A stretch of 64,000 nucleotides of DNA, taken from assembly GCA_030390025.1 (NCBI GenBank), contig CM059432.1:12586001-12650000 (forward strand). Direction: 5' to 3'. The DNA is from Squalus acanthias (lineage: Eukaryota). The notes below the pieces were generated by a model. That model was not told the origin of the DNA. It searched no databases and saw only the letters and a program-made list of their open reading frames with translations. Below are positions 9,271 through 63,920 of the stretch, piece after piece (positions within the stretch are counted from its first letter, which is position 1; each line of letters starts with the position of its first letter). Both the position numbers and the translations under genes were made by a program.

Positions 9271-10654
9271 TGTACCCATACCCATGTTATCAATCCTCCT
9301 TCCCCGTCTTTGGAACATAGGAACAGGAGGAGGCCATTCAGCCCCTCGAGACTGTTCCGCCATTCAATGAGATCATGGCTGATCTGTTTCTTAACTCCAT
9401 CCACCTCCCTTGGCTCCATATCCTTTAATACCCTTGGCTAGCAAAGATCTACCGATCACTGATTTAAAATTATTAATTGAGCGAGCATCTACTGTTTTTG
9501 TGGGAGATAATTCCACACTTCTACCACCCTTTGCATGAAGAAATGTTTCCTAACTTATCTCCTGAATGGCCTGGCTCTGATTTTAAGGTTATGTCCCCTT
9601 GTCCTAGACTCCCCCACCAGCGGAAAAAGGTTTCTCTCTATCTACCCTATCAATTCCTTTCAAAATCCTAAAAACCTCAATCAAATCACCCCTTAACCTT
9701 CTATATTCCAAGGAATACAAGCCTAGTTTATGTAATCTCTCCTCATAATCTAACCCTTGGAGCCCTGGTAACATTCTGGTGAATCTGCGCTGCACTCCAT
9801 CCAAGGCCAATATATCCTTTCTAAGATGCGGTGCCCAGAACTGTACACAGTGCTCCAGATGTGGGCTAACCAGGGCTTTGTATAGCTGTAGCAAAACTTC
9901 CTCCCCTTTATATTCTCGCCCTCTATTTATAAAGGCTAACATTCCATTAGCCTTTTTGATTATTTCTTGTACCTGACTATTACATTTTAGTGATCTCTGT
10001 ACATAGACTCCTAAATCTCTTTGTATCTCCACTGTTCCTCACTTTTCACCATTTAAATCATATTTGGATCTATCCTTTTTTGGTCCAAAATGGATAACCT
10101 CACACTGAGCTGCATTGAAATACATCTGCCAGAGTTTCGCCCACTCACTTAATCTATCAATGTCTCTTTATAATTTTATGCTCCCATCTACACTATTTAC
10201 CAAACCACCAATCTTTGTGTTATCGGCAAACCTGGTTATATGGCTCTCTATTGTGTTATGTAAGTCATTAATAAATATAGTGAATAGTTGAGTCCCAGCA
10301 CAGATCCTTGTGGGACACCACTAGTCACTTCCTTCCCATTCGACTACATATCAATTATCCCTACTATCTGTCTTCTACAACCTAACCAATCTCCAAACCA
10401 GGTCAATAATTTGCCTTCAATTCCACGAGATTTAAGTTTAGCTAACAGTCTCTTATGTAGAACTTTATCATATGCCTTCTGGAAGTCCATATAAACTACA
10501 TCCATAGATATTCCCATGTCTACTACTTGAGTTACTTCCTCAAGAAATTCAATTAGGTTTCTTTGACATGACCTACCCTTTACAAATCCATTTTGGCTCT
10601 CTCTAATCAGCTCAAATTTCTCTAAGTGCTCAGTCACTCTGTCCTTATTATAGA

Positions 10655-13834: not shown

Positions 13835-15799
13835 GTGTCCACCAGCAAGCAAAAGTGTGCACCTCGCTTTGATGAGCCCTCCCTCCAAGCTCTGGTGCAG
13901 GGAGCAAGATCTAATAAAGAGGTGCTCTTCCCTTCTTCAGGGAGAAAAAAGCCACCACAACAGACTAAAGCTGTGTGGCTGCAAGTGGCCCAGGAGGTCA
14001 ATGCCATCTCTATGTGCCGCAGAACCTGGCTGCAGTGCAGGAAGAGGTTTCATGACCTTCTCTGCACAGGAAAAGTGAGTATGACTTTCCCATCACCCTC
14101 AATCTGATCCCCATCGCCTCTCCTCACCAGCACTCAGCTTTGCCAACCTCTTCCTCCACATCCCACTTGACACTGACATCCCTGCACCCTTACCCATTCC
14201 CTCTCTCTCCATGGTCACATTCACTTAACTATTCGACCATGCAGCCCTCACACTCCCTATCACTGTGACGCAATGACGACAACTTACAACACACAGGGAG
14301 GGCCCTTTGTCTCCTTCTAAGCATTTATGCTATGGATTCTCTACACTCACTCCTTCATTCTCACTCAAACTCCACTTGTGTCCCTCATTGCAGGAAAAGA
14401 GAGCCCACAATAAGAGGGAAAGAGCAAGGACAGGAGGAGGGCCACCCTCAGTAGCCCAGCTCACCACCTCAGAGGAGGCGGCCCTGGAAATTGCTGGGAT
14501 CGAGGAGGATTCCCAAGTGGGGGACGGACAGGCGGGCGCATCACAGCAAGCTGGTGACAGAATAGTTTGGCATCTCTCTCATTGACATTGCATGAGTGAC
14601 TGATAATGATTCTGATGCTCTAACAGATTGACTTATGATCATCTGCACAATTCAATGTGCATGCAACCTTTACCTCACATCTCTGACTCTTTCCTTTACT
14701 CCCCCACAGGACCATTGAGAGCCCCCGTCCCCACTGTCCAGGAGGAACAGCCTGAGCCTCGAGACACCTCAGAGGAAGCTGCAACCTCTGAGGGCGCAGC
14801 ATCAGCAGAATTAAACGCACCCTGCACCAGCGCAGGCACTCACACGTCGGTGGGACCTTCAGGACATAGAGTAGAGTTGTCACAAGTGAGCATCAGCAGA
14901 TGGTGGAGACAGGGACAGAAGTGAAGAGTCCTCGTCACAGTGAAGAGGACGCTCCCAGCTCGGCTCCGCTGCATGTCGACCCTGTGCCTCCGGGTCCATC
15001 CAGAAGGAGAGTGGTGCTGGAACTCCAGGAACAGGTGCCGGAGTCTCTGGCAGGTTTTGTCTCCAGGGTCGCTGCGAGTGTGGAGCGAATGGAAGAGTCC
15101 ATCGCTAACATGAGCAGAGCCTTTGTGGAGGCGTTGGCGCATGAACGCATCACCACAGAAAGGATGGCAACCTCCTTGGAAAGGATGGCTACCTCCATGG
15201 TAAGGCTGGCTACCGTAGAGGAGAGGATGGCTACGGTAGAGGAGAGGATGGCTACGTCCATGGAGGATCTTAGTCGCCAGGGTATGGAAAACATGGTAAT
15301 TGTTCAGAATAGACTGACATCTCTTGAGGAGCGATGGTCAGCTATTGAGCAAACAAACCTGACCTTCATGCAAGTCCTCTGGAGTAGGACTTCCAGTGCA
15401 GAAACGGGTCCTCATGGCCCCCCTGAAGTGCAGCAAGGTGCTGTCCATCCACTTGCTAGCTCTGAAGTGGGGCTGACCCATGAGAGGGATGTTGGTGGCA
15501 TACAACAAGGAAGTGGGGGCTCCTCTCCAAGCACTCACACGACCATGCCACTGCAGTGCCCTCGGTCAGAGCCCCACCAGAGTCCCCACCCAACTGAGAT
15601 CGGCGTCTCAACCCCTGCACAGCCGCAGGAGCAGCAGACTGTTGCCGAGCCCTCACAGGTTTGCAACCCCAGAGGACGGCCGCCAAAGGTGTCGAGACAG
15701 GAGCAGCAAGAAAGTGAGCAAGAGGCCTCCACATCTGCTGAAGCCACAGGGGAAGCACCACGTAGGAGCACGCATAAGAGGAAGATAATGCACAAGTAG
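13835..15799 (+). CDS. Harbinger Myb/SANT-like DNA-binding protein, 3 exons (about 13835-14074, 14394-14553, 14710-15799); one apparent frameshift near 14885, start codon uncertain
   Basis: Exon 1 APRFDEPSLQALV...VLFP...W..VAQEVNA....RTWLQCRKRFHDL; donor aaaa|gtgagt, acceptor ttgcag|; exon 2 EKRAHNKRERARTGGGPP; phase-1 intron ctg|gtgaca...cccacag| is phase-compatible; exon 3 has a coiled-coil repeat and basic end APRRSTHKRK. Confidence 0.8.
15158..15262 (+). repeat. 5 x 21-bp coding tandem repeat (heptads ERMATSL, ERMATSM, VRLATVE, ERMATVE, ERMATSM)
   Basis: Seen directly in ORF 14900-15799. Confidence 0.9.
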
Positions 15800-16960: not shown

Positions 16961-17659
16961 GTTTCACTGGCGTGTTCCAGAGGAGACGTACAGGACATGG
17001 GAAAAGTGGTAAAATCAGAAAGGCCTCTCAAAATGGGATTATAGAGGCAATTAACTGGTTGTTAAGGGCCTTAAGGGCCTATCCCGCCTCTTGGAGGCGG
17101 GATGGAAACGGGGTCAGAAAACACCCCGTGGGTGACCTTGTAAAATGTAAAGGTGAGCTCAAAATACTTCTTAATGGGCTGTTAACAAGATCATAATGAC
17201 CTGAATTGCCTCCCCCACTGCTGCGTGTCGGGTCTGTTCACCCTGACAGACCCAACATCTTGGGAAAATTGCTCGGAGGTGGGATGGAGGCGGGATCGGG
17301 CCCGCCCGCCATTTTTTGCGATTTTACCACCTCACACACCTCCAATCCCGCCTCCTCGGTCCTGGCAAAATTGAGCCCTTAATGTTTTCAAGGGGAGACT
17401 GGATAGGCACTTGAGGGAAATAAACTTGCAGGGCTGCGGGGATAGAGCGGGGGAATGGGACTGACTGGATTGCTCCACAGAGAGCCGGCACGGACTCGAT
17501 GGGCCGAATGGCCTCCTTCTGTGCCGTTATGACTCTCTCTCTCTATAACGTCATTTGATGATGCATCATCACCCGGTTTCCTTAAAGGGACCTTGCGCAA
17601 ATTTAGTTTGACAGTTGTGCTGTCAGTGTTCTACAGCATTGAGGTGCTGCAAACACTGA

Positions 17660-17901
17660 CAAGCACGGCACAGAGGTGCACGGCTGCACCCAGGCTCTCC
17701 CATGACTCCCTCCATATGCTTATGGAGGGAGTCAGAGCACGCAGGGAGGTTCTCTTCCCTTCCAATGGGCAGAAGAGACCTCCCCAGGAGATCAACGCAG
17801 CCTGGTTGCACATTGCACAGGAGGACACAAGCAGGGATGTCGTCAGGAGGACCAGGCTGCAGTGGCGCAAACCTTTCAATGATCTCAGTAGATCACAAAA
17901 C
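17660..17901 (+). pseudogene. Degenerate Myb/SANT exon 1 of Harbinger copy B
   Basis: AAPRLSHDSLHMLMEGVRARREVLFP...W.HIAQE...RRTRLQWRKPFNDL aligns with exon 1 of copy A; downstream exons are absent. Confidence 0.8.
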
Positions 17902-18401
17902 GTTACTGCAAAGCCACACTCAACCTCATCCTGCTGTGCCACTCATCACATCCCCATCACTCTGCCTCCCCTACCCTACTCCTGCACATCCTTACTCACA
18001 CCAACTTACCTTGCACCTCCACCCATCCCTCTCTATCTCCATTATCACTTCCCCATCTCACTAGCCACCCCTCACACTCACCCTCATCCTAGTCCAATCA
18101 GACCAACTAACAATACACAAGGGTAGGCACTTGGGTGTTTTATGCAATGTTCAAGTAAAGTTTCTGTTAATATGGTGTCAAACATTGAAACCTTTATATT
18201 CAGCACTTTGCCTTCTTGGACAGATTTGTGTGCACCTTTGGAAGTGGCTTAGTGAGTTGCAGTGAATGGTGAGACATAACGGTACCCCCGCAATGGTGAT
18301 GAGTGTGAAAGGCATGGCTTGGGCATTGTAGGGATTCTTTATGGTGTTGGTGTGGGATGGTGCCAACCTGGCGCATCATGTGACAGCCAAGGTGTACAGC
18401 A

Positions 18402-18620
18402 TCAAGTGAAGTAAATCTGGCCATGGTGAGGCCATCCCTGGCCTCCCGGGCAGCAATGTGGCCGAGTGCTGATGCCCTGTGTCCTGTGCAGCATCAGTTG
18501 ATTGCGGAGAAGGTTGGTGCTGTTGTTAGTGTTGCTGGTGTGCCTGGTGCTGCTGGTGTTGGGGCTGATCGTGGTGGGATTCTGAGGACCAAGGTGAGAT
18601 AGTTTCAAGGGCACCGATGC
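18402..18620 (-). pseudogene. Transposase remnant of Harbinger copy B
   Basis: GALETISPWSSE, a Q/H-rich tract and AAQDTGHQHS are joined to HIAAREARDGLTMARF at the same junction as in copy A. Confidence 0.7.
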
Positions 18621-19527
18621 TGATGTAATAGATGGCAAGTGAACTTGAGATGACAGAAGTGATCTGTCAGTGGTGAGAGAGGTTGTTCCAATGAGGTGAC
18701 ATTGGATAGAGAGTTTACTCCAAACACTTGCAACCAGCCCACAGCTCAATCTGTCTTCAAAATGAAGTAAGCAACAGCTTCTGACCTTGAAAAGTGAACA
18801 GCTGTGAGATGGGAGCTTTTATTGCACATTTCAAGCGGTCAAGTAATGAGATGATTCCATGCTCATACAACTCCCGACCTCCTTACCTGACGTGATCCCC
18901 GAGCAGCGTGGACCCCGTGGGTGACCTTGTAAAATGTAAAGGTGAGCTCAAAATACTTCTTAATGGGCTGTTAACAAGATCATAATGACCTGAATTGTCT
19001 CCCCCGCTGCTGCGTGTCGGGTCTGTTCACCCTGACAGACCTAACATCTGGGAAAGGTGCGTAGCGGCGGGTTGACAACGGGGTCCCGACCCGCTGTCAA
19101 AATAAATATTTTCCCACCCGACCCACCACCGAACGTGGCCGCTGAACCCCCAGAAAATTCCTCCCAAAGTAATTATTCAACAAGTCTGCTATTTCCTTAT
19201 TTTCATTTGCAATATTACCCCCATCTGTTTTTAAAGGGCTCACATTAACATTGACTACCCTTTTTCTCTTAATATATTTGTAAAAACTTTTTGTGTTAAT
19301 ATTGATATCCTTTATACGTCTTCTGCAATAAATCATACTAGTTGCAGTGCCACCCTACTTACCTGCCAGGCAGACGATATTTCTTTACTATATGTCATTC
19401 TCCAACCACACAAATAAAACTCATGCATACATTGCAACTCCTGTACCTGCATGTTCTATTTATAAAAATGTGAATTGTTCCTGATTTGGTGCGTGTTCCC
19501 ACAGTGCTTACCCTGTGTGTGTTGTGC

Positions 19528-22984: not shown

Positions 22985-23675
22985 GTTACATAAAGTAAGT
23001 TACAAGAATTACATAGAATATACAGCACAGAAATAGGCCATTCGGCCCAACTGGTCTATGCTGGTGTTTCTGCTCCAGATGAGCCTCCTCCCACCCTACT
23101 TCATTAACCCTACCTATATATCCTTCTAAGTTAAGAACATAAGAACATAAGAAATAGGAGCAGGAGTAGGCCATTTGGCCCCTCGAGCCTGCTTCGTCAT
23201 TCAATAAGATCATAAGTGAGAAGTCGCACAACACCAGGTTATAGTCCAACAGTTTTATTTGAAATCACAAGCTTTCGGAGCTGCCGCCCCTTCGTCAGGT
23301 GAAGTGAAGGAATACGAATCGGCAAAGCATATATAGACAGAGAACTCTCACATTTGTCCACCCCAGTCCAACACCGGCATCTCCACAATAAGATCATGGC
23401 TGATCTTCTATCTCATTTCCACTTTCTTGCACTATCCCCATATCACTTGATTCCCTTAATATTCAAAAATCTATCGATCTCTGTCTTGAATATACTCAAC
23501 GACTGAGCCTCCACAGCCCTCTGGGGTAGAGAATTCCAAAGATTCACCACCCTCTGAGTGAAGAAATTTCTCCTCATTTCAGTCCTAAATGGCCGACCCC
23601 TTATTCTGAGACTGTGACCCCCCTGGTTCTAGACTCCCTGCATCTACCCTGTCAAACCCTGTAACAATTTTGTAT
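22985..23675 (-). mobile_element. Two adjacent CR1 3' fragments, the second interrupted by a Penelope-type insert
   Basis: Tails ttacatagaa and (aacataag)n; reverse of TRGHSLRIRG...FFTQRVVNLWNSLP. Confidence 0.85.
23214..23385. mobile_element. Penelope-type short fold-back insertion with one arm mostly deleted; hammerhead motif on the minus strand at 23265-23304
   Basis: TSD caataagatcat at 23202-23213 and 23386-23397; same arm and tail as 52349-52585. Confidence 0.8.
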
Positions 23676-24536: not shown

Positions 24537-24680
24537 GAGAACATAAGAACCTAAGAAATAAGAGCAGGAGTAGGCCATTTGGCCCTTCGAGCCTGCTCTG
24601 CCATTCAATAAGATCATGGCTGATCTTCTACCTCATCGCCACCATCCTGCACTATCCTCATATCCCTTGATTCCCTTAAT
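24537..24680 (-). mobile_element. CR1 3' tail fragment
   Basis: aacataagaa repeats followed by ggagtaggccatttggcccttcgagcctgct, as in other CR1 tails. Confidence 0.8.
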
Positions 24681-39237: not shown

Positions 39238-40911
39238 GGGGCTAAATTGGATGGCCCCCGAAAATGGGCGCGGGAATCGCGATGCACGATTTATAAGTAT
39301 TTAAGCAGCATTTTACCAGGTTCTAACGATTTTTCCATGTTTTTTACGAGGCTCCCAGCGCTCGGGGATCACGTCAGGTAAGTGCGTCGAGTTCTCAATG
39401 ACTCTCCATTGCTGTGAATAGTTGACAGCTGCAAAAGTGGTATAAAAGCTACCATTTCACAGCTGTTGAATTTCCAATCTTAGAAGCTGGAGCCTTCAGG
39501 ATTTGGAATACACTTTTCAGCTTTATGGAGGTTTGAAGTGTTTGGAGCAAACTCTCTGGCCAGTGTCACCTTCTTGGAGCAACCTCTCTCACCATTGACA
39601 GATCGCTTCAGTCATCTCAACTTCAGCTGCCATCTATTTCATCAGCATCGGTGCCCTTGAAAAAATCTCACCTTGGTCCTCAGAATCCCACCACGATCAG
39701 CCCCAACACCAATGTTACCAGGCACACCAGCAGCACCAGGCACACCAGCAGCACCAACAACAACACCAACCTTCTCTGCAATCACCTGATGCTGCACAGG
39801 ACACAGGGCATCAGCACCCGAGCACATTGCTGCCCGGGAGGCCAGGGATGGCCCCACCATGGCCACATTTACTTCACTTGACGCTGTACACCCTGGCTGT
39901 CACATGATGTGCCAGGTTGGCACCACCCCACCTCAACACCATAAAGCATCCCTACAATGTCCAAGCCATTCCTTTCACACTCATCACCATTGGGGGTGGG
40001 GGGTGAGTACTGTTATGTCTCACCATTTACTGCAACTCACTAAGCCAGTTCCAAAGGTGCACACAAATCTGTCCAAGAAGGCAAAGTGTTGAAAATAAAG
40101 ATTTCAATGTTTGACACCACATTAACAGAAACTTTACATGAACATTGGCTAAAACACACAAGTGCCTACCCTTGTATGTTGTTAGTTGGTATGATTGGAC
40201 TGGGATGAGGGTGAGTGTGAGTGGTGGCTAGTGAGATGGGGAAGTGATAATGTAGATAGAGAGAGATGGGTGGAGGTGCAAGGTAAATTGGTGTGTGTAA
40301 GGATGTGTAGGAGTAGGGTAGGGAAGGCAGAGTGATGGGGATATGATGAGTGGCACAGCAGGATGGGGTTGAGTGTGGCTTTGCAGTAATGTTTCGTGAT
40401 CTACTGAGATCATTGAAAGGTTTGCGCCACTGCAGCCTGGTCCTCCTGACCACATCCCTGCTTGTGCCCTCCTGTGCAATGTGCAACCCGGCTGCGTTGG
40501 TCTCCTGGGGAGGTCTCTTCCGCCCACTGGAATGGAAGAGAACCTCCCTGCGCACTGTGACTCTCTCCATAAGCATATGGAGGGAGTCATGGGAGAGCCT
40601 GGGTGCAGCCGTACACCTCTGTGCAGTGCTTGTCAGTGTTTGCAGCACCTCAATGCTAAAGAACACTGACAGCACAACTGTCACAATGATTGTGGACATG
40701 GCCCCTTTAAGGAAACTGGCTGATGACGCGTCATCAAATAACGTCATCAGACCCGCTTCCTATTAATTGGCCGGGAACCTCGCAGGGCGGGCTTAGCAAG
40801 GCCCATCATCGGAATATCTTGTTGGAGGCCGGGATCGAGACAGATGCGGGGTCCCCACACGCCACGGACGTCGCCCGCCCCGGACCCGCCGAGGTTGGAA
40901 AAATCCAGCCC
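39238..40911 (-). mobile_element. Non-autonomous Harbinger (copy C), inverted relative of copy B
   Basis: Myb exon 1 remnant (-) at about 40390-40630, transposase remnant (+) at about 39645-39880, TIR aaaatccagccc at 40911; the left end is of a different type (ggggctaaattgg). Confidence 0.85.
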
Positions 40912-41313
40912 TGGGTGTCATCCTTCAGACATTAAACACGGGTGTCATCCTTCAGACATTAAACATGGGTGTCACCCTTCAGACATTAAACATGGGTGTC
41001 ATCCTTCAGACATTAAACATGGGTGTCACCCTTCAGACATTAAACATGGGTGTCATCCTTCAGACATTAAACATGGGTGTCATCCTTCAGACATTAAACA
41101 TGGGTGTCACACTTCAGACATTAAACATGGGTGTCATCCTTCAGACATTAAACATGGGTGTCACACTTCAGACATTAAACATGGGTGTCATCCTTCAGAC
41201 ATTAAACATGGGTGTCATCCTTCAGACATTAAACATGGGTGTCACACTTCAGACATTAAACATGGGTGTCACTCTTTAAACTTTAAACGTTGGGTGTCAC
41301 ACTTCAGACATTG
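40912..41313. repeat. 27-bp minisatellite tgggtgtca(tc/cc/ca)cttcagacattaaaca; 13 near-perfect plus 2 degenerate units
   Basis: Seen directly; further units at 39185-39232. Confidence 0.97.
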
Positions 41314-43231: not shown

Positions 43232-44005
43232 CAGAATGAGAGGTGATCTTATTGAAACATATAAGATTCTGAGGGGGGTTGACAGGGTGGATGCTGAGAG
43301 GATGTTTCCCCTAGTGGAGGTATCTAGAACTAGGGGGCATAGTTTCAGACACCCTCAAGGACACCCTCAAGGACACCCTCAAAGCCTCCTTGAAAAAGTG
43401 TAACATCCCCACCGACACCTGGGAATCCCTGGCCCAAGACCGCATAAAGTGGAGGGGAAGCATCCAGGAAGGCGCCGAACACCTCAAGTCTCTTCGCCGG
43501 GAGCAAGCAGAAGCCAAGCGCAAGCAGCGCAAGGAGCGCACGTCAACCCAAGCACCCCACCCACCCGCCCCTTCAACCACCGTCTGCCCCACCTGTGACA
43601 GAGACAGTAGGTCCCGCATTGGACTCATCAGTCACCTGCGAACTCATTTTTAATGTGGAAGCAAGTCATCCTCGGTTCCGAGGGACTGCCTAAGAAGAAG
43701 AAGGATAGTTTCAGAATAAGGGGTCGCCCATTTAAGACAGAGAAAGAGGAGGAATTTCTTCTCTCAGAGGGTCGTGAACCTTTGGAATTCTCTATCCCAG
43801 AGAGCTGTGGAGGCGGAGTCATTGAATATATTCAAGGCAGAGATTGACAGATATTTGAACTACTAAGGGAGTCAAGGGGTATGGGGAGAGAGCGGGAAAG
43901 TGGAGTTGAGGCCAAGATTGGATCAGCCATGATCTTATTGAATGGCGGAGCAGGCTCGAGGGGCCGATTGGCCTACTCCTGCTCCTGTTTCTTATGTTCT
44001 TATGT
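43232..44005 (+). mobile_element. CR1 3' fragment interrupted by an RTE tail
   Basis: RMRGDLIETYKI...TRGHSF|RIRGRPFKTE; (cttatgtt)n tail. Confidence 0.88.
43350..43704 (+). mobile_element. 5'-truncated RTE LINE
   Basis: Nearly identical to 46360-46688; 11-bp TSD atagtttcaga at 43339-43349 and 43705-43715; (aag)n tail. Confidence 0.92.
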
Positions 44006-48704: not shown

Positions 48705-49170
48705 TTACATAGAATTTACAGCACAGAAACAGGCCATTCAGCCCTGGTCTGTGCCGGTGTTTATGCTCCATGTGAACCTCCTCCCACCCTACTTAATCTA
48801 ACCCTATCAGCATAACCTTCTATTCCTTTCTTCCTCATTTACCCATCTAGCTGCCCCTTAAATGCATCTATACTATATATGCCTCAACTCGCCATGTGGT
48901 AGCAAGTTCCACATTCTAACCACCCTCTGGGTAACAAAGTTTCTCCTGAATTCCTTATTGGATTTATTAGAACATAAGAACATAAGAAATAGGAGCAGGA
49001 GTAGGCCATTCAGCCCCTCGAGCCTGCTCCGCCATTCAATGAGATCATGGCTGATCTTCTGCCTCAACTCCACTTTCCTGCACTATCCCCATTAGTGACT
49101 ATCTTATATTTAGTGACTATCTTATATTTAGTGACGATCTTATATTATATCCGACAAGTGGAAACATCTT
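48705..49170 (-). mobile_element. CR1 3' fragments (nested tails) with a 3 x 18-bp tandem ttagtgactatcttatat at about 49092-49146
   Basis: CR1 tail motifs; the tandem is seen directly. Confidence 0.8.
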
Positions 49171-51215: not shown

Positions 51216-52348
51216 TGATAGTTAGTTCACGTTGGCCAAACTAATTTCTAACCTCAGGGAGTGGGTTAGTACATCTTTAGTACCTGTATATCAAAGGTGA
51301 CATACATTGGTATCTAATGCCATTTAAACAACTGCAGATTATAAAGCAGAACGGGATTGTCTAAACAATCACCTAGAAAAATGTCTAGATCTATCAAAGA
51401 GAAGGGATGAATCAATTTTTCAAGAATAAAGTCATCCCACATGCTATGATCCTCTTTCCTCCTGGCAGGACCATTATTACTCGGTTCTGCCTATAAGAAA
51501 ACCTTTATAGTCGCAGGTATTCTAAAGAGTGCCCACCCTTGTGATATACTTTCTCATGTGCGTGCCTTGTCTTTACGAGTTCACACTGCTGGAGGCTCAA
51601 CAGCTGGTGCCTTTCATCTGGATTAGTTATGTTCAATAAGTGTGTGTCAGTCATTCCTTGCTGCAGCTTTTTACTATCATCAGGTTCCACAAATCACAGA
51701 GTCAGGTGCAGACTTCCAACAGCGATGCTGCTTATTCATCTTTCTTGACTTGAATGAAGCTTCTGCTGAGAAGCAGCGTACCAAATTCAGAGCCCTTTCT
51801 TTCAACCACAGCCTTTGGTCAAACTACGTCCCCGATTTTAACTCGGGGCGAGAGCCGGGTGGGCCGGGGGCAGCAAACTGTCCGGGCCTCGGCGGCGTGA
51901 GGCCCGGTAGATTTTAACTCCCGGGCCTCACGAGCACAGCCTCAGCGAGCCTCCCGCCTGAAAGTGGTGGGAAAGGGCGACTGGACGGCGGGTGGGCGCG
52001 CAATGTTGGGCAGAAGGAACCTGCCACCGTTCAACAAAGGAAAGGCCCCTGGCGCTCGGGTAAGTCACGGGGGGTGGGGGGGGGTGGTGCTCGGGAGGGC
52101 CTTCTGATAGGGGGAGGGAGGGAAGCCCGGGGTGGGGAAGGCCTAAAAGTTCCTTGTGGGACTTGGAGGAGCGCTTCTGTTCCGCCTGGCCCCACAAGGA
52201 ACAATCTAAAATGACTCACCTTTGTGGGCCTCTTTCCACCAGGTTGGCCTGGCAGGAAAGCCACAAATGGCTTCCCCCGTGCAGGCCTCTGGTTAAAATA
52301 GCAGTCGGACTCCAGTGACGTCATCAGAGTCTGACCTTCATATTTATA

Positions 52349-52585
52349 AATGTGAGAAGTCGCACAACACCAGGTTATAGTCCAACAGCTTTATTTGAAA
52401 TCACAAGCTTTCGGAGCGCTGCTCCTTCGTCAGGTGAAGTGAAGAGATGCATATAGGCTTCACCTGACGAAGGAGCAGCAGCTCCGAAAGCTTGTGATTT
52501 CAAATAAAGCTGTTGGACTATAACCTGGTGTTGTGCGACTTCTCACATTTGTCCACCCCAGTCCAACACCGGCATCTCCACATCA
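52349..52585 (+). mobile_element. Penelope-type fold-back insertion (inverted arms of about 92 bp plus tail)
   Basis: Arms at 52348-52439 and 52458-52550; tail gtccaccccagtccaacaccggcatctccacatca; TSD ttcatatttata at 52337-52348 and 52586-52597. Confidence 0.88.
52459..52497 (+). ncRNA. Minimal type I hammerhead ribozyme motif
   Basis: UCAC-CUGACGA-A-GGAGC(AGCA)GCUCC-GAAA-GCUU-GUGA: core boxes, stem I UCAC/GUGA, stem II and a palindromic AGCU stem III. Confidence 0.7.
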
Positions 52586-54223
52586 TTCATATTTATAGAA
52601 GGATCCCGGTGGTTTCTGGTGAGTGTCCTTCCCGCCTGCTCAGAACAGCCGGTTAAAATTGGAACCAGCGGGAAGAGAGTGGGATCTCGTCAACCAAGTC
52701 CCATGGGCAATTTTACATGCCCGCCCGCCCGCCCACACGGTTTCCGTTGGGCACGCGGGGTTAAAATCGCACCTTAGACCAGCTCCCAGAGAAATCATTT
52801 TACCTGATCTAATTTTAGCTCCTAGTGACCAGAACTGAATACATGTTGTGGTTTTGGGTGGAAGGGTTTTATTTCATGAATTTTAACTTTTTGCCCTTCA
52901 TTGACCAAATTAATATTTTTCAAAAGAACCTGATTAGAAAGTGATGCATCAGTCAGGCTGTCTGTTCACTCGAACAGGATGTGGCACTGCACGTCGGTTA
53001 GAATTACTTCCCTTGGGCAGTGTAAGCTTGGTGGTTAGGGGCACATGCCTTTGATAATCAGCTTCAGTATCTCTTTCATGTCAATAATGAGAAGATACGA
53101 CATCATCAAAGAGAGACTAATTCAGTGAAGAAACTGTTAAAGGGCCTACATAGGGAAGGGTGATGAGAGAGGGCTGGGGAACTGAAGAAGTGAGGATTAG
53201 AAACAGTTAGCACTTCAGGGCAGGGAAGGGAATAAAGTGAAAAAGTGCATTATTGCAACAATCTGAAGCTACAGCAGCTGTCAAGAGTACCCTTCCTCTT
53301 GGCATGTGTCGTTTGATGATTAGAACTAAGGGCGATTGCCAAGAACTTGCTCTGATTGCCTGGTTGGCCAGAGGCAGGGTTTAAGCTTTGAACTGAAAAG
53401 ATCAAATTTCATTCCACATCTCACTGCTTTTTTTTCCCCAACTTGGGACTTTTAATCTAGTCATCTGCCAGTAGCTACTTTCATAGTAATTACAAACATA
53501 TAATAGCTATAAAATCAGTACTCACTAATAACTTTATGGCTCGGCCCAGACAGCAAAATTTAAAGTCATTCAAGATGATGAGAATTGGCTGCACCTGCAC
53601 ACACTTTCAAATGCTAAAAGTTGCTTGGATATTTTATGATCCAGCCCTGAAGCTGGGTTTAATACTTACCATTAAGAAGCCATTTGTTGCTGCATCTTTG
53701 TCATAACCCAAATTGAGAGGCACATTTCTCTCACTTTGGAGACAGACAAAGCGCAAAAGTGTATTTCAAACCCGTGACCAGCTGGTAACTGAGGTTGTAA
53801 ATATCTTTGGCGGGGGGCGGTTGTACATCTTACTCACTTACTTCCTTAGGTGAGACTTTAGGAGGGAAAGCAATGAAAAATCTTGGAAGTGTCAAAACAA
53901 CGTAAATACTTTGCACACAGTAAATCCTCCTCTGCCAGTAATCTGGCAGCTCTGTTTGTCGAAACAAAAAAAATTAAATGACGTGTGTTTAAGAAAAAAT
54001 TCAGTGTTCTTTTTAGAACTCTCAAAGTAAACACTGAGAAAATTAACAAATTAACAGCTGTCCTGGCACGTTATCCTGACAAGCTTGTGAGTGTTACTGG
54101 AAAATCCATGTAATAAGAGGCGAGTTGCTGGGCGTAATTTTGACTTTGCCCGATAGAATAAAACGGCCGATATCGAAACAACCGTCCGTTAAACATCTCT
54201 CCCGATTTTCAGTTTCATTAAAT

Positions 54224-54979
54224 GGGCCGTATTTTGCGACCTCTACGGGTGCGTACGAGGTGCGCACGCGCCCGTAGGGGCCGCGCAAGTGCCGGCTTTA
54301 GGCATGCGAAGCGCCATGCACTGAAACCTGGCACTTGCGATCTTGACAGATCCTCCGCATCCCCGGGGAAAGGGCCTCCGCGGGTGGAGAGTTGCGCTAT
54401 TTGCCCAACTTCCGCCCGCTGAAAGGCCGTGGAATTCTTACACCTGGTAAAAGCTGGCATAAGGCCTGCTTTTACCAGCATAAGAGCTTTAAAAAATAGA
54501 AAAATTAAATTTTATCACTCATTTATACATTAAAAACCCTGTCCAATAAGGTAAGTTTATTTTTAGCCCCGTTAAAACATATAAAAAACATTTTCAAAAA
54601 ATTTAATTATTGTTTAAAATATTTAATTAAATGCCATTTTAATTAATTTTATATATGTACTTTAAAAACATTTTATTTCACGTGTTCGTGTATTTTTTAA
54701 GTCATCTTCATTCATACTTTTGACAATTCCGTACGTACAGAACTGTCAAAAGTATGAAGGGGGATTCCCTTCTTTCATTGGTTGGGCCGGCCCACGTGAT
54801 CCCAGGGGTGCTCGCGAACCGCCTGCGTCCCTGGGATATGTGGGCCTCTACGCATTTCAACCAGCAGAGGCCCAGGATCGCAGGCCTCCGTATCTCCCGG
54901 ACCACCAGGTAAATGCGTCGAAAATTTGATGATGGGAGGCCTCCGCCCGCAGGAAGCCTCCGATCGCAAATTCAGGCCC
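54224..54979 (+). mobile_element. Harbinger-like MITE
   Basis: TIRs gggccgtattttgcga / tcgcaaattcaggccc; AT-rich core; hairpin at 54711-54758. Confidence 0.8.
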
Positions 54980-56226
54980 ATTGACTTCATCTGAGAGTCT
55001 TCGAGCCGGATTAAATATCAGAAACTGCCATAAATCACCCTGTTGTATATAAAACAGCCTGCTATGTAATTAAATTAGTTTTATGCAGCATGGAATACTT
55101 TACAAAGACTCCTCTTCTGTCTATACCCATTGTAAGTGTTCATGAAAAATTAGTTACACGCTGATCCTAATTTACGATTTTGGAAGCGCATTACAGGATT
55201 TGGAGAAATGATCAACATAACTTGTTGACTGTGTCTGCCCAAAAGGCATTGAACTTCGGCTCAATGGAATTCCTTATTTCACAGTGTGACTGACTGAAGG
55301 CTCCTTGGCCAGATTCAGACGGGTTCACTGTTTCCGAGCTGGGAATAAAAGACGGAGAAAAAGAGTCACTAAAAATGAAAGAACCGCATGTTTTTTTCTT
55401 CAAAAGTAATGAAGGGGGAACTAAATAGCAGGAATGCGTGCTTTTCAAACACGAGAAAGCGGTTTCTTTAGTGGCAATCGAAAAATAAGAATCATGTTAC
55501 ATAAAAAAAACTAGAGGCCATGACTGTCACCCAACAGGGAATGCAGGAGGAGCTTCTTGATCCCGAGAGTGGTTAGAATATGGAACTTGCTACCACAGGG
55601 AGCAGTTGAGGCGAATAGCATTTAGAATCATAGAAATTTACAGCACGGAAGGAGGCCATTTTGGCCCATCTTGTCCGCGCCGGCTGACAAAGAGCTATCC
55701 AGCCTTATCCCACTTTCCAGCTCTTGGTCCGTAGCCCTGTAGGTTACGGCACTTCAAGTGCACATCCAAGGACTTTTTAAATGTGATGAGGGTTTCTGCC
55801 TCTACCACCCTTTCAGGCAGTGAGTTCCAGACCCCCACAACCCTCTGGGTGAGGAAATTTCCCCTCAAATCCCCTCTAAACCTCCGACCAATTACTTTAA
55901 ATCTGTGCCCCCTGGTCTTTGACCCCTCTGCTAAGGGAAATAGGTCCTTCCAATCCACTTTATCGAGGCCCCTCATAATTTTATACACCTCAATAAGGTC
56001 TCCCCTCAGCCTCCTCTGTTCCAAAGAAAACAAACCTATCCAATCTTTCCTCGTAGCCAAAATTCTCCAGTCCAGGCAACATCCTCGTAAATCTCCTCTG
56101 TACCCTCTCTAGTGCAATCACATCTTTCCTGTAATGTGGTGACCAGAACTGCACGCAATACTCTAGCTGAGGCCTAACTAGTGTTTTATATGGTTCAAGC
56201 ATAACCTCCCTGTTCTTATATTCTAT

Positions 56227-56455
56227 TGAGAGGTCGCACAACACCAGGTTATAGTCCAACAGTTTTATTTGAAATCACAAGCTTTCGGAGCCATCGATCG
56301 CCCCTTCCTCAGGTGAAGTACTTCACCTGAGGAAGGGGCGATCGATAGCTCCGAAAGCTTGTGATTTCAAATAAAACTGTTGGACTATAACCTGGTGTTG
56401 TGCGACCTCTCAATTTTGTCCACCCCAGTCCAACACCGGCATCTCCGCATCATGA
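56227..56455 (+). mobile_element. Penelope-type fold-back insertion, near-perfect palindrome of about 190 bp
   Basis: Centre gaagtacttc at 56315-56324; TSD cttatattctat at 56215-56226 and 56456-56467. Confidence 0.88.
56322..56364 (+). ncRNA. Minimal type I hammerhead ribozyme motif
   Basis: UCAC-CUGAGGA-A-GGGGC(GAUCGAUA)GCUCC-GAAA-GCUU-GUGA. Confidence 0.7.
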
Positions 56456-57519
56456 CTTATATTCTATGCCTCGGCTAATAAAGGCAAGTATTCCGTATGC
56501 CTTCTTAATCACCTTATCTACTTGGCCTGCTACCTTCAGGGATCAGTGGACCTGCACTCCAAGGTCCCTTTGTTCCTCTACACTTCTCAGTGTCTGACCA
56601 TTTAATGTGTATGCCCTTGTCTTGTTAGCCTTCCCCAAATGCATTACCTCACACTTCTCCAGATTGAATTCCATTTGCCACTGTTCTGCCCACCTGACTA
56701 GTTCATTGATATCTTCCTGCAGTCTACAGCTTTCTTCTTCATTATCAACCACACAGCCGATTTTAGTATCATCTGCAAACTTCTTAATCATACCCCCTAC
56801 ATTCCAGTCTAAATCATTGATATATACCACAAAAAGCAAGGGACCTAGTAATGAGCCCTGCGGAACCCCACTGGAAACAGCCTTCCAGTCACAAAAACAC
56901 CCATCAACCATTACCCTTTGCTTCCTGCCTCTGAACCAATTTTGGATCCATGATTGGCTCAAGGAAAGCTAGATAAACACATGAGGGAGAAAGGAATAGA
57001 AGCTTCTGCTGATAGGGTTAGATGAAGAGGGGTTGGAGGAGGCTTGGGTGGAGCATAAACACTGGCATGGACCAGTGGGCGAATGGCCTGTTTCTGTGCT
57101 GTAAGTTCTACTGTAATCCGATGCACCTGCAATAATGATTCTTATAACACTTATCAAGCAGCTAACAAGCCACTTAACCACTGGAAAGTTCAACGATCCA
57201 GCTCTGAAGTGAGCAATTGTTGGAAAAAACATCTAAATGCCAACTGTGAAAAAAAATGGGTGAGCACAGTAATAATATTTGATGAGGAAGGACAGCATAC
57301 ATAGAAACCAGAAAGTGTGGCAATATGTTACTGGCAGGGTCAGCACTGTCTCAGAGAATCTGCCAGGAGGTCAAAAAGAAGACGTTTGATCTTAAAGAAG
57401 AGCACAGAGAAGCCATGAATACTACTGTAAATCAAGAGCTCAGGACTTATTGATATAGTTGTTGTTAAATGATATATGCAAGAAAATGCTGTGCCGACAC
57501 AGAGAAATGTTAGCATGGA

Positions 57520-60455: not shown

Positions 60456-63400
60456 GGGCTGGATTTTCTCAGCCCCGAGGAGGCGGGCATGGAGGCGGGA
60501 CTGCCGGTAAAGTAGCAGAAAGTGGGGGCGGATGGCAAACCCGCCCCCATTCCTGAGGAATTGGAACCGTTTCTGGGTGAGGTGGGACCTCTAAAAGCCA
60601 GACGGGTTGCACCTCAATGGGAACGGGACCAATATCCTCACGGGAGGGTTTGCTAGTGCTGTTGGGGAGGGTTTAAACTAGCTTGGCAGGGGGATGGGAA
60701 CCTAAGTATAGAGTCAATAGGGAGGGAAGAAAAAGTGGAATTGGAAAACTAAAACGTAGAAAGTAAATTGGAAGGACAGAGGAATCAAGGGCTAGATAGT
60801 AGTCAACAAGGAGGTTTGCCTGTACTAAATGGTATATACTTCAATGCAAGGAGTATAGCGAACAAGGCAGATGAGCTGAGGGCACAGGTAGATACTTGGG
60901 ACTATGATATTATAGCTATTACAGAGACGTGGTTGAAAGAGGGGCAGGTATGGCAGCTCAACATTCCTGGTTACAGGATTTTCAGACGGGATAGAGAGGG
61001 AGGTAAAAAGGGAGGGGGGGTCGCGGTATTGATTAAAGAAACTATTACAGCTGTGAGGAGGGATGATATGTTGGAGGGATCATCAAACGAGGCCATATGG
61101 GTTGAATTGAAAAACAAAAAAGGAGCGATCACACTGCTGGGAGTGTACTACAGACCCCCAAACAGGGAGAGGGAGATAGAAGAACAAATATGTAGACAAA
61201 TTTCAGAGAAGTGCAAAAACTATAGGGCAGTAATAGTAGGGGATTTCAACTACCCCAATATTAACTGGGATAAAATGAGTGTGAAGGGTATAGAGGGTGC
61301 GGAATTCCTAAAATGCATCCAGGAGAACTTTTTTAGTCAGTATGTAGCAATCCCAACCAGGGAGGGGGCTGTTTTGGACTTAGTTTTAGGGAATGAAGCT
61401 GGGCAGGTGGAAGGCGTATCAGTAGGGGAGCATTTTGGTGCTAGTGGCCATAATTCTGTTAGATTTAAGGTAGTTATGGAAAAGGATAGACCAGGAATAA
61501 AAATTCTAAATTGGGGAAAAGCAAATTTTGCTAAGCTCAGAGGGGATTTAGCCATAGTGGACTGGAACCAGCTACTTGAAGGTAAATCAGTGTCAGAGCA
61601 GTGGGAGGCATTCAAGGAGGAGATCCGAAGGGTTCAGACCAAATATGTGCCCTTAAAGAAAAAAGGTGGGACTAACAAATCTAGAGCCCCCTGGATGTCT
61701 AGGGACAAACAGGGTAGAATAAAGAAAAAAAGGGAGGCGTATGACAGATACCGAGTGCTAAATACTCCAGAATCTTTAGAGGGGTACAGAAAGTGCAGGG
61801 GTGCAATTAAAAAGGATATTAGGAAAGCAAAGAGAGAGCATGAAAAATTCTTGGCAGGTAAAATCAATGAAAACCCAAAGATGTTTTATAAATATATTAA
61901 GAGTAAGAGAATAACTAAATAAAGGGTAGGGCCGATTAGAGATCATGAGGGTAATGTGTGTGTGGAGGTGGGAGACGTCGGTAGGGTTCTTAATGAATAC
62001 TTTGCGTCTGTTTTCACAAAGGAGAGGGGTGAAGCAGACATTGCTATCGGGGGGGAGGAGTGCGAAATATTAGATGAAATAAACATAGTGAGGGAGGAAG
62101 TATTAAGGGGTTTAGCAGCTTTAAAAGTGGATAAATCCCCAGGCCTGGATGAAATGTATCCCAGGCTGCTAAGCGAAGCAAAAGAGGAAATAGCAGAGGC
62201 ACTGACCATCATTTTTCAATCCTCTCTGGCTTCAGGTGTGGTGCTGGAGGACTGCTAATGTGGTGCCCTTGTTTAAAAAGGGAGAAAAGGATAGACCGAG
62301 TAATTACAGGCCAGTCAGCCTAACCTCGGTGGTGGGAAAATTATTGGAAAGAATTCTGAAGGACAGGATAAATCTTCATTTAGAAAGACACGGATTAATC
62401 AAGGATAGTCAGCACGGATTTGTTAAGGGAAGGTCGTGTCTGACAAACTTGATTGAATTTTTTGAGGAGGTAACAAGGAGGGTAGATGAGGGTAGTGCAT
62501 TTGATGTAGTTTATATGGACTTCAGCAAGGCTTTTGACAAGGTTCCACATGGCAGACTGGTCACGAAGTTAAAAGCCCATGGGATCCAGGGCAAAGTGTC
62601 AAGTTGGATTCAAAACTGGCTCGGAGACAGGAAGCAGAGGGTAATGGTTGATGGGTGTTTTTGTGACTGGAAGGCTGTTTCCAGTGGGGTTCCGCAGGGC
62701 ACAGTACTAGGTCCCTTGCTTTTTGTGGTATATATCAATGATCTAGACTTGAATATAGGGGGTATGATTAATAAGTTTGCAGATGATACTAAAATCGGCT
62801 GTGTGGTTGATACTGAAGAAGGAAGCTGTAGACTGCAGGAAGATATCAATAAATTGGTCAGGTGGGCAGAACAGTGGCAAATGGAATTCAATCTGGAGAA
62901 GTGTGAGATAATACATTTGGGGAGGGCTAACAAGGAAAGGGAATACACATTAAATGGTAGGACACTGAGTAGTGTAGAGGAACAAAGGGACCTTGGAGTG
63001 CATGTCCACAGATCCCTGAAGGTAGCAGGCCAAGTAGATAAGGTGGTTAAGAAGGCATACAGAATGCTTGCCTTTATTAGCCGTGGCATAGAATACAAGA
63101 GCAGGGGGGTTATGCTTCAACTGTATAAAACACTAGTTAGGCCTCAGCTAGAGTACTGCGTGCAGTTCTGGTCACCACATTACAGGAAAGATGTGATTGC
63201 ACTTGAGAGGGTACAGAGGAGCTTTACAAGGATGTTGCCGGGAGTAGAGATTCTTAGCTATGAGGAAAGACTGGATAGGCTGGGTCTGTTTTCCTTGGAA
63301 CAGAGAAAGCTGAGGGGAGACCTTATTGAGGTGTATAAAATTATGAGGGGCGTAGATAAAGTGGATAGAAAGGACCTATTTCCCTTAGCAGAGGGGTCAA

Positions 63401-63920
63401 AAATTTGATTTAAAGTAATTAGTGCAAGGTTTAGAGGGGATTTGAAGGGAAATTTCTTCACCCAGAGGGTGGTGGGGGTCTGGAACTCACTGCCTGAAAG
63501 GGTGGTAGAGGCAGGAACCCTAACCACATTTAAAAAGTACTTGGATGTGCACTTGGGATGCTCTAACCTGCAGGGCTACGGACCAAGAGCTGGGAAGTGG
63601 GATTAGGCTGGATAGCTCTTTGTTGGCCGGCGCGGACACAATGGGCCGAAATGGCCTCCTTCCGTGCTGTAACTTTCTATGATTCTATATATGATTCTGT
63701 CAAACGCTGATATTTCTTCTTTCAAGAAGTCTTGACCGATAGCACGTCAGACGTTGATGTGCTCTGTCAGTGACTTCCCCCCTAATTGGCCTGCTGAGCC
63801 CGCAGGGCGGGCTTAACAAGGTCAATCAGGGGAAAATCCCTCTGGTTGGCCAGAAGTTGATGGAGGCGGGACATTGACCCGACAAGCAGCAGTCCCGCCT
63901 CCATTGAGAAAATCCAGCCC
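60456..63920. mobile_element. Harbinger MITE interrupted by a 3.1-kb CR1
   Basis: Perfect 16-bp TIR gggctggattttctca; ATA TSD at 60453-60455 and 63921-63923. Confidence 0.9.
60557..63697 (+). mobile_element. CR1 LINE: end of ORF1 (SGNH esterase-like) and nearly complete ORF2 with a few disablements
   Basis: ORF1 end DGLHLNGNGTNILTGGFASAVGEGLN* at about 60680; APE NARSI, ITETW, YRPP, GDFN; RT NYRPVSLTS, QHGF, DFSKAFD, GVPQG, FADD; ctatgatt tail. Confidence 0.96.

Follow-up and report, generated by a model that had tools for sequence, protein, structure and literature searches.

Three fold-back inserts with hammerhead motifs in a Squalus acanthias contig are most likely ordinary pseudo-LTR insertions of a Penelope-like element

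A stretch of 64,000 nucleotides from the Squalus acanthias assembly GCA_030390025.1 (contig CM059432.1, positions 12,586,001 to 12,650,000; hereafter the window) harbors three small inserts, A (23214-23385, 172 bp), B (52349-52585, 237 bp) and C (56227-56455, 229 bp), which have an arm and a tail in common and carry hammerhead ribozyme motifs. A preliminary description of this DNA had offered two readings, short Penelope-type insertions or a ribozyme-bearing non-autonomous family, and the locus thus raises the question of what these inserts are and how they were made. They are very probably end pieces, namely the pseudo-long terminal repeat (pLTR) region, of an abundant Penelope-like element (PLE). 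We give a probability of roughly 0.6 to the reading that they are three independent insertions of this region, made by cutting both strands 12 nt apart and copying RNA from both ends. Papers are cited by archive number.

All three inserts were found as initially described, and each is bracketed by its own exact 12-bp direct repeat (no strand assigned): 23202-23213 and 23386-23397 for A, 52337-52348 and 52586-52597 for B, and 56215-56226 and 56456-56467 for C. These words are AT-rich, with a G+C content of 3/12 (A), 1/12 (B) and 2/12 (C), while 12-mers with at most three G+C make up 15.5% of all 12-mers in the window. The word duplicated at A stands singly at no fewer than four, that is at least four, paralogous sites of its host repeat in the window (24606-24617 and 43929-43940, identical; 49037-49048 and 9365-9376, one mismatch), and that of C stands singly at 63088-63099 (one mismatch) within a paralogue about 91% identical to its host. 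Because the words occur once at these empty sites of A and C, the 12-bp repeats are true target-site duplications, those of B being assigned from the exact repeat. Most junctions, inspected by eye, have one or two bases common to target and element. That each insert interrupts another transposon holds for A, which sits in a repeat found many times in the window, and for C, whose host is a long interspersed nuclear element (LINE) coding for reverse transcriptase (RT); for B, no paralogue of the flanks was found within the 64-kb window. The right flank of B is repeated outside the window, in contigs of four sequencing runs. One contig each of the organisms coded B and D aligns with the far flank up to 52586-52587 and then continues for 97 and 151 letters without the tail, which suggests, as judged from the right flank alone, that these two are empty orthologous sites of insert B. 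A fourth insert, arm or tail was not detected elsewhere in the window. The LINE that supplies the empty site for C (60753-63408) is long and fairly intact, with endonuclease-like and RT frames, and the segment 52590-52730 in the right flank of B is single in the window and middle-repetitive in three organisms, its copies being about 15-20% diverged.

The order of parts is the same in all three inserts: duplication, inverted arm without tail, direct arm, tail, duplication. Insert A consists of a long inverted arm, a tail-less pLTR piece on the minus strand (23214-23345, right limit uncertain by about 4 nt) that reaches about 40 nt upstream of the ribozyme motif, and a direct part on the plus strand (23346-23385) made of about 8 nt of arm and a 32-nt tail, 100% identical to 52541-52580 in B. 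The inverted arm of B (52349-52457, minus strand) is likewise tail-less and extends about 16 nt further upstream than the direct arm (52458-52549, plus strand), which begins one base past an initiator-like position; the 36-nt tail (52550-52585, plus strand) is present at this end only. In C, the inverted arm (56227-56319, minus strand) and the direct arm (56320-56412, plus strand) join without a spacer at an initiator-like A, with 92 of 93 positions complementary, and the 43-nt tail (56413-56455, plus strand) stops just past an ATG at 56452-56454. The centers differ among the three inserts: A combines the long inverted arm with a direct part of about 40 nt, B has unequal arms and C is a spacer-free palindrome. 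Insert A had been regarded as an incomplete version of B and C, a view that has to be given up, as it has instead the reverse layout. Both arms of any one insert share subfamily variants; those of C differ by one base, and those of B in loop II (AGCA in the right arm, AGC in the left). The inverted arms of A and B hold upstream sequence that is missing from their direct arms and the tail is confined to the direct side, which means that neither of the two arms can simply have been copied from its partner.

Beyond the window, the family was followed in contigs of the four sequencing runs, from three coded organisms, aligned to 52442-52850, i.e. the direct half of B and its flank. The runs gave 10,756, 1,745, 4,800 and 25,017 aligned records, nearly all on 52458-52586, and the summed depth on the element was about five orders of magnitude above that on the far flank, a ratio that is not a copy number. 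Among the matches listed (24 of 672), the homology breaks off into unrelated AT-rich sequence at loose ends that form two clusters, 52545-52555 and 52582-52587. These two boundaries lie about 35-40 nt apart, enclose the tail and coincide with the arm ends in the window, where left-arm starts are equivalent to 52545-52549 and right ends to 52580-52588. Past the tail, the commonest letters in the contigs are ATG followed by ACT or GCT, and from this continuation the ATG after the tail (56452-56454 in C) is likely the start codon of the open reading frame (ORF) of the parent element. Opposite-strand joints with other centers also occur among the contigs, one of them at a depth of 135 versus about 20 for the far flank, and both loop II states of the B arms are common in the family.

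The link to PLE coding sequence runs through metagenome contigs. A gapped ribozyme pattern matched three of them (L001, L002 and L003), and L003 carries the end of a GIY-YIG ORF (PF01541, 23.4 bits against a cut-off of 22.6), with the same ribozyme type 281 nt after the stop codon. Outside the search pattern, 20 of 21 bases of L003 match the arm, and none of 5000 shuffles was as good. The protein of L003 has seven longer relatives, of which two are named shark proteins; the closest named one has an RT and is 59% identical. L003, L002 and the shark proteins P0001 and P0007 each have a CX2-5CxxC linker before the GIY-YIG domain and a CCHH motif. This linker is a feature of Neptune and Nematis (PMC8557442), and the parent of the inserts may belong to this type. 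The ORF end of L002 resembles that of L003 but gave no Pfam match at E 0.1; the overlapping contig L001 carries an inverted RT fragment. A repeat homologous to the arm follows the GIY-YIG ORF end in L003, a link to the inserts that is indirect. Exact 23-base patterns had no match in viral, metagenome and prokaryote collections, and protein-based locus searches returned 14 and 29 pattern matches, none of which was confirmed. Five loci obtained with a looser viral pattern (best E 0.86) had no clear similarity and were set aside as chance. L001 and L002 share 677 bp at 99.6% identity and appear as a rearranged Penelope-type locus, in which the RT fragment is inverted relative to the ribozyme and endonuclease end.

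In the reading that we favor, the GIY-YIG domain would place nicks 12 nt apart in the two strands of an AT-rich target. The bottom-strand end would prime copying at an outer start site, the tail end, while the top-strand end would prime at an inner start site 32-43 nt upstream of it, and the 3' ends of the two short cDNAs would be fused, giving a head-to-head joint. The product would be a duplication, an inverted tail-less arm, a direct arm, a tail and a duplication, and the hammerhead would be a passenger inherited from the parent. Dual-site priming fits arms that each hold sequence missing from the other, and we lean slightly towards priming from both cut ends. For a PLE protein, it was described that both strands are cleaved and extended, that two internal start sites bound the tail, that targets are AT-rich and that the enzyme is a predicted dimer; the lizard ribozyme is protein-dependent and dispensable for insertion in vitro (PMC11167929). 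Rotifer Penelopes have an inverted tail-less pLTR, a 31-bp tail and 8-10-bp duplications, with a TATA box and a TCACT initiator in the pLTR (PMC3846280).

Three of the six arms stop at the initiator-like A, both C arms at the A of a TTCACT motif and the right arm of B one base later. A TATA-like box with a putative promoter function is present in A (23328-23335, minus strand); the initiator-like A follows it at a distance of 30 nt, at position 23305, and the spacing in L003 is 29-31 nt. These stops hint at a run-off signal from the transcription start. Run-off at the 5' end of the transcript would account for the arms that stop at the initiator-like A, and longer arms would be copies from the downstream pLTR of the same or a sister transcript, a proposal that we regard as tentative. 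More doubtful still is its full form, in which the smallest fold-backs would not be random truncations: run-off copying would have reproduced in full the first 90-130 nt of the transcript of the element, started by TATA box and initiator 7 nt before the hammerhead core, with both internal start sites fixed by a conserved stem-loop and a dimeric enzyme copying from both cut ends to the cap and joining the products head to head.

The stem-loop in question is predicted in B at 52511-52568 (plus strand), where a 9-bp helix of 52511-52519 with 52560-52568 encloses the inner boundary. A helix of 9-10 bp is found around this boundary in B, C and L003 and, bulged, in L002, with a spacing of 44-46 nt. 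In an unanchored duplex test, the number of shuffles (of 300) that were as good was 4 for B, 3 for C, 5 for L003 and 72 for L002; in an anchored test, which was post hoc, it was 0-1 of 3000. Covariation of the downstream helix in the four sequences was not significant, with 94% of 35 cells paired, yet 218 of 500 shuffles reaching the score. Two-sided changes were absent from this four-sequence alignment, and a U-A to G-C change in L002 was seen by eye, out of register. An alternative 9-bp helix in B (52525-52533 with 52564-52572) is equally stable, and RNAalifold picks the alternative helix. A pseudoknot of both helices was set aside, as they have five 3' bases in common and a linker of 5 nt would be left to bridge the two. 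Taken together, the predictions hint at a stem-loop at the inner boundary that recurs in two distant relatives, and by analogy it may correspond to the stem-loop of PAc, the Poseidon element of Anolis carolinensis. No description of a start-site pivot, twin priming, hairpin families or a pLTR pseudoknot was found in the open-access literature, while subscription papers and the supplement figures of PMC11167929 may bear on these points.

Several observations weigh against the reading set out so far. There is no Penelope ORF in the window (tblastn best E 0.51), and the proposed search for GIY-YIG- or RT-encoding parents of the arm yielded the related contig L003, whereas no parent of the exact insert family was retrieved from the viral, metagenome and prokaryote collections. 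Because the pattern that retrieved L003 prescribes the bases of the ribozyme core, identity in the core is circular, and the match of L002 after the ribozyme is at chance level (3244 of 5000 shuffles). L002 is also without the promoter spacing, its TATA-like box lying at -25 and its initiator at -13. The run-off proposal draws on three arms in two insertions and on two further joints that start at 52458, the edge of the aligned homology, and the Penelope promoter of Drosophila virilis is internal and TATA-less, with a start well upstream of the ribozyme (PMC2377424, PMC4209133). Finally, the unequal arms could stem from later deletion at the palindrome center, and in PMC3846280 junction palindromes of this kind are taken as self-priming.

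Self-priming would give the same Penelope origin with a single priming event, in which the first cDNA would fold back on itself or jump to another template and be copied on, with a template switch or a later deletion at the center making the arms unequal; we consider this unlikely. It would account for the subfamily variants shared by both arms of a copy, with a single mismatch in C and one indel in B, and for the spacer-free palindrome of C. However, shared variants are also expected if both cDNAs derive from one tandem transcript, and together with the perfect center of C they fit single and dual priming equally well. The left arms of A and B exceed the right arms, for which plain self-copying would need a later deletion, and the left ends gather at a second fixed position, the pattern expected from two start sites. 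The indel between the B arms, both states of which are common, is a weak hint of two templates, although slippage at a short repeat could also explain it.

The hammerhead motif itself bears on whether the inserts move as units of their own. A descriptor search of both strands of the 64 kb matched the five arms and nothing else; the Rfam hammerhead models gave no match at gathering score. The motif of A lies at 23265-23302 (minus strand, predicted cut 23269/23268), those of B at 52401-52437 (minus strand) and 52460-52497 (plus strand, predicted cut 52493/52494) and those of C at 56275-56316 (minus strand) and 56323-56364 (plus strand). In the right motif of B, a minimal type I hammerhead like that of A, stem I pairs 52460-52463 with 52494-52497, the core at 52464-52470 is followed by the extra A at 52471, stem II pairs 52472-52476 with 52481-52485, and GAAA (52486-52489) runs into the palindromic AGCU (52489-52492); the cut expected after GCUU is the standard reading. 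The CUGANGA and GAAA boxes and U16.1-H17 are found in all five arms, and the extra base after A9, the G10.1-C11.1 pair and the palindromic stem III are all present in the arm motifs. The claim of the preliminary description that stem II varies and stays paired was borne out in a comparison of seven sequences, made without a statistic and with the two outer pairs fixed by the search pattern: the third pair is A-U in B and L002, G-U in A and C, and C-G in L003.

Variation in the family was assessed among the matches listed (40 of 79). None of the eight variable element positions falls in the ribozyme, of which position N7 does vary, and the tail and downstream helices are equally free of variants. 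The nine substitution rows at these eight positions avoid the ribozyme and the predicted helices with P of about 0.002; for the part after the ribozyme alone, P is about 0.02. In copies with T at core position 7, a variant seen in none of the five window arms, the core would contain an ATG that opens a 9-codon frame ending at the predicted cut (by eye, in the loose-end consensus). A polyadenylation-like word, AATAAA, lies at 52503-52508, about 10 nt past the predicted cut, at the same place in all five arms and also after the L002 ribozyme; L003 is without it.

The motifs of B and C are not expected to fold in read-through RNA. In the predicted fold of full-length B and C the pairing probability of stem II is 0.0 on both strands, and in a read-through RNA of A it is 0.02. 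For RNA beginning at the pivot, formation of both stem I and stem II is predicted, with a probability of 0.46-0.93. Every read-through transcript of B or C has the sense motif 3' of its own complement, and on either strand the ribozyme is predicted to lie hidden within the hairpin, unable to fold. The motif is indeed encoded on both strands of B and C, as had been noted, but this has no value for dimer formation, because each transcript holds one sense motif and stem II is not predicted to pair. Monomer ribozyme folds were not more stable than shuffles (z -0.33 to -0.97), and a dimer through intermolecular AGCU, with stems II counted and stems I left out, reached -20.9 kcal/mol versus a cofold minimum of -31.5 kcal/mol.

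A fixed non-autonomous hairpin family, similar to retrozymes or short interspersed elements, that is itself transcribed, self-cleaved and re-inserted would be suggested by the similar size of B and C, their pivots within one base of each other, the great abundance and the recurrence of some joined forms at high depth. It is nevertheless improbable. The three copies show three centers, three tail ends and three stem II variants, with further different joints in the run contigs, and are therefore not one fixed family. No insert boundary coincides with a predicted cleavage site, the ribozyme helices are not predicted to form in full-length B and C, and head-to-tail units as in non-LTR retrozymes (bioRxiv 10.64898/2026.07.22.740005) are absent. 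The anatomy, the two-site boundaries and the GIY-YIG contig support the first of the two readings offered initially, short Penelope-type insertions, and the differing centers tell against the second. A miniature inverted-repeat DNA transposon with a chance hammerhead-like motif would have the long inverted arms and the constant duplication of 12 bp in three of three copies, but is very improbable, since the inverted repeat is not terminal, the tail of 32-43 nt is one-sided and the ends shift from copy to copy by several bases; an inverted repeat is nearly lacking in A, and a homologue of the arm lies downstream of a Penelope-type ORF.

Other features of the window include a tandem repeat of about 24 bp in many copies with open frames of repeated peptides (40797-41279), a further frame of 309 amino acids (14870-15799) and a 1.2-kb repeat that is present twice, in opposite orientations and with about 90% identity (17545-18749 and 39516-40747), and whose ORF fragment presumably resembles the Myb/SANT protein of Harbinger elements.

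The inserts are most likely for the greater part ordinary, a known kind of pLTR-only Penelope insertion with inverted arm, tail and minimal hammerhead, and provide three clean cases of an insertion signature already described, the family concerned being very abundant in at least three related organisms. Should arm ends peak at a transcription start, with a conserved stem-loop located at the start sites, counts of such ends would provide a test of how the inverted repeats of Penelopes form, and the run-off model, if true, would explain head-to-head palindromes without an antisense template.

Compared with the minimal PLE hammerheads of PMC4209133, the motifs share the type I core, the extra base between positions 9 and 10.1, the G10.1-C11.1 pair, the 4-bp helix I, the palindromic 15.2-16.2, a variable helix II and nearby opposite-strand motifs; that paper reports the extra base, the palindromic stem III, opposite-strand motifs 100-700 bp apart and low, dimer-dependent activity. 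Helix II has 5 bp in the inserts, which are known here from sequence, versus 7-8 bp in Schistosoma families, and a shark example was found neither in the available text of PMC4209133 nor in an open-access literature search on sharks. Non-LTR retrozymes are likewise non-coding, pLTR-derived and equipped with a type I hammerhead, and are reported in a cartilaginous fish (bioRxiv 10.64898/2026.07.22.740005), but they consist of head-to-tail tandem units, whereas the inserts are single and head to head, with no transcript holding two sense motifs. With PAc (PMC11167929) the inserts share the two boundaries that enclose the tail, AT-rich targets, a stem-loop at the inner start site, predicted in the case of the inserts, and a ribozyme away from the insertion boundary. 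They differ in that the PAc ORF begins at stem II with start sites at least 111 nt inside it, while the likely start codon of the insert family is at the tail end (no ATG stands at the start of stem II in any of the five arms), and in that the related ORFs carry a Neptune/Nematis-type linker. The duplication of 12 bp in all three inserts differs from the 8-10-bp duplications of rotifer Penelopes (PMC3846280), and the tails measure 32, 36 and 43 nt. The closest counterpart is the canonical unit of endonuclease-bearing (EN+) Penelopes (PMC3846280, PMC8557442), which has the same inverted tail-less 5' copy, one-ended tail of 30-40 bp, short duplication and palindromic junction, and the same TATA-like box, TCACT initiator-like motif in the pLTR and ORF start within pLTR or tail. 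The inserts hold the pLTR region alone, in 172-237 bp, and all three of them display the inverted 5' copy placed head to head, the one-ended tail and the AT-rich target duplication of these elements.

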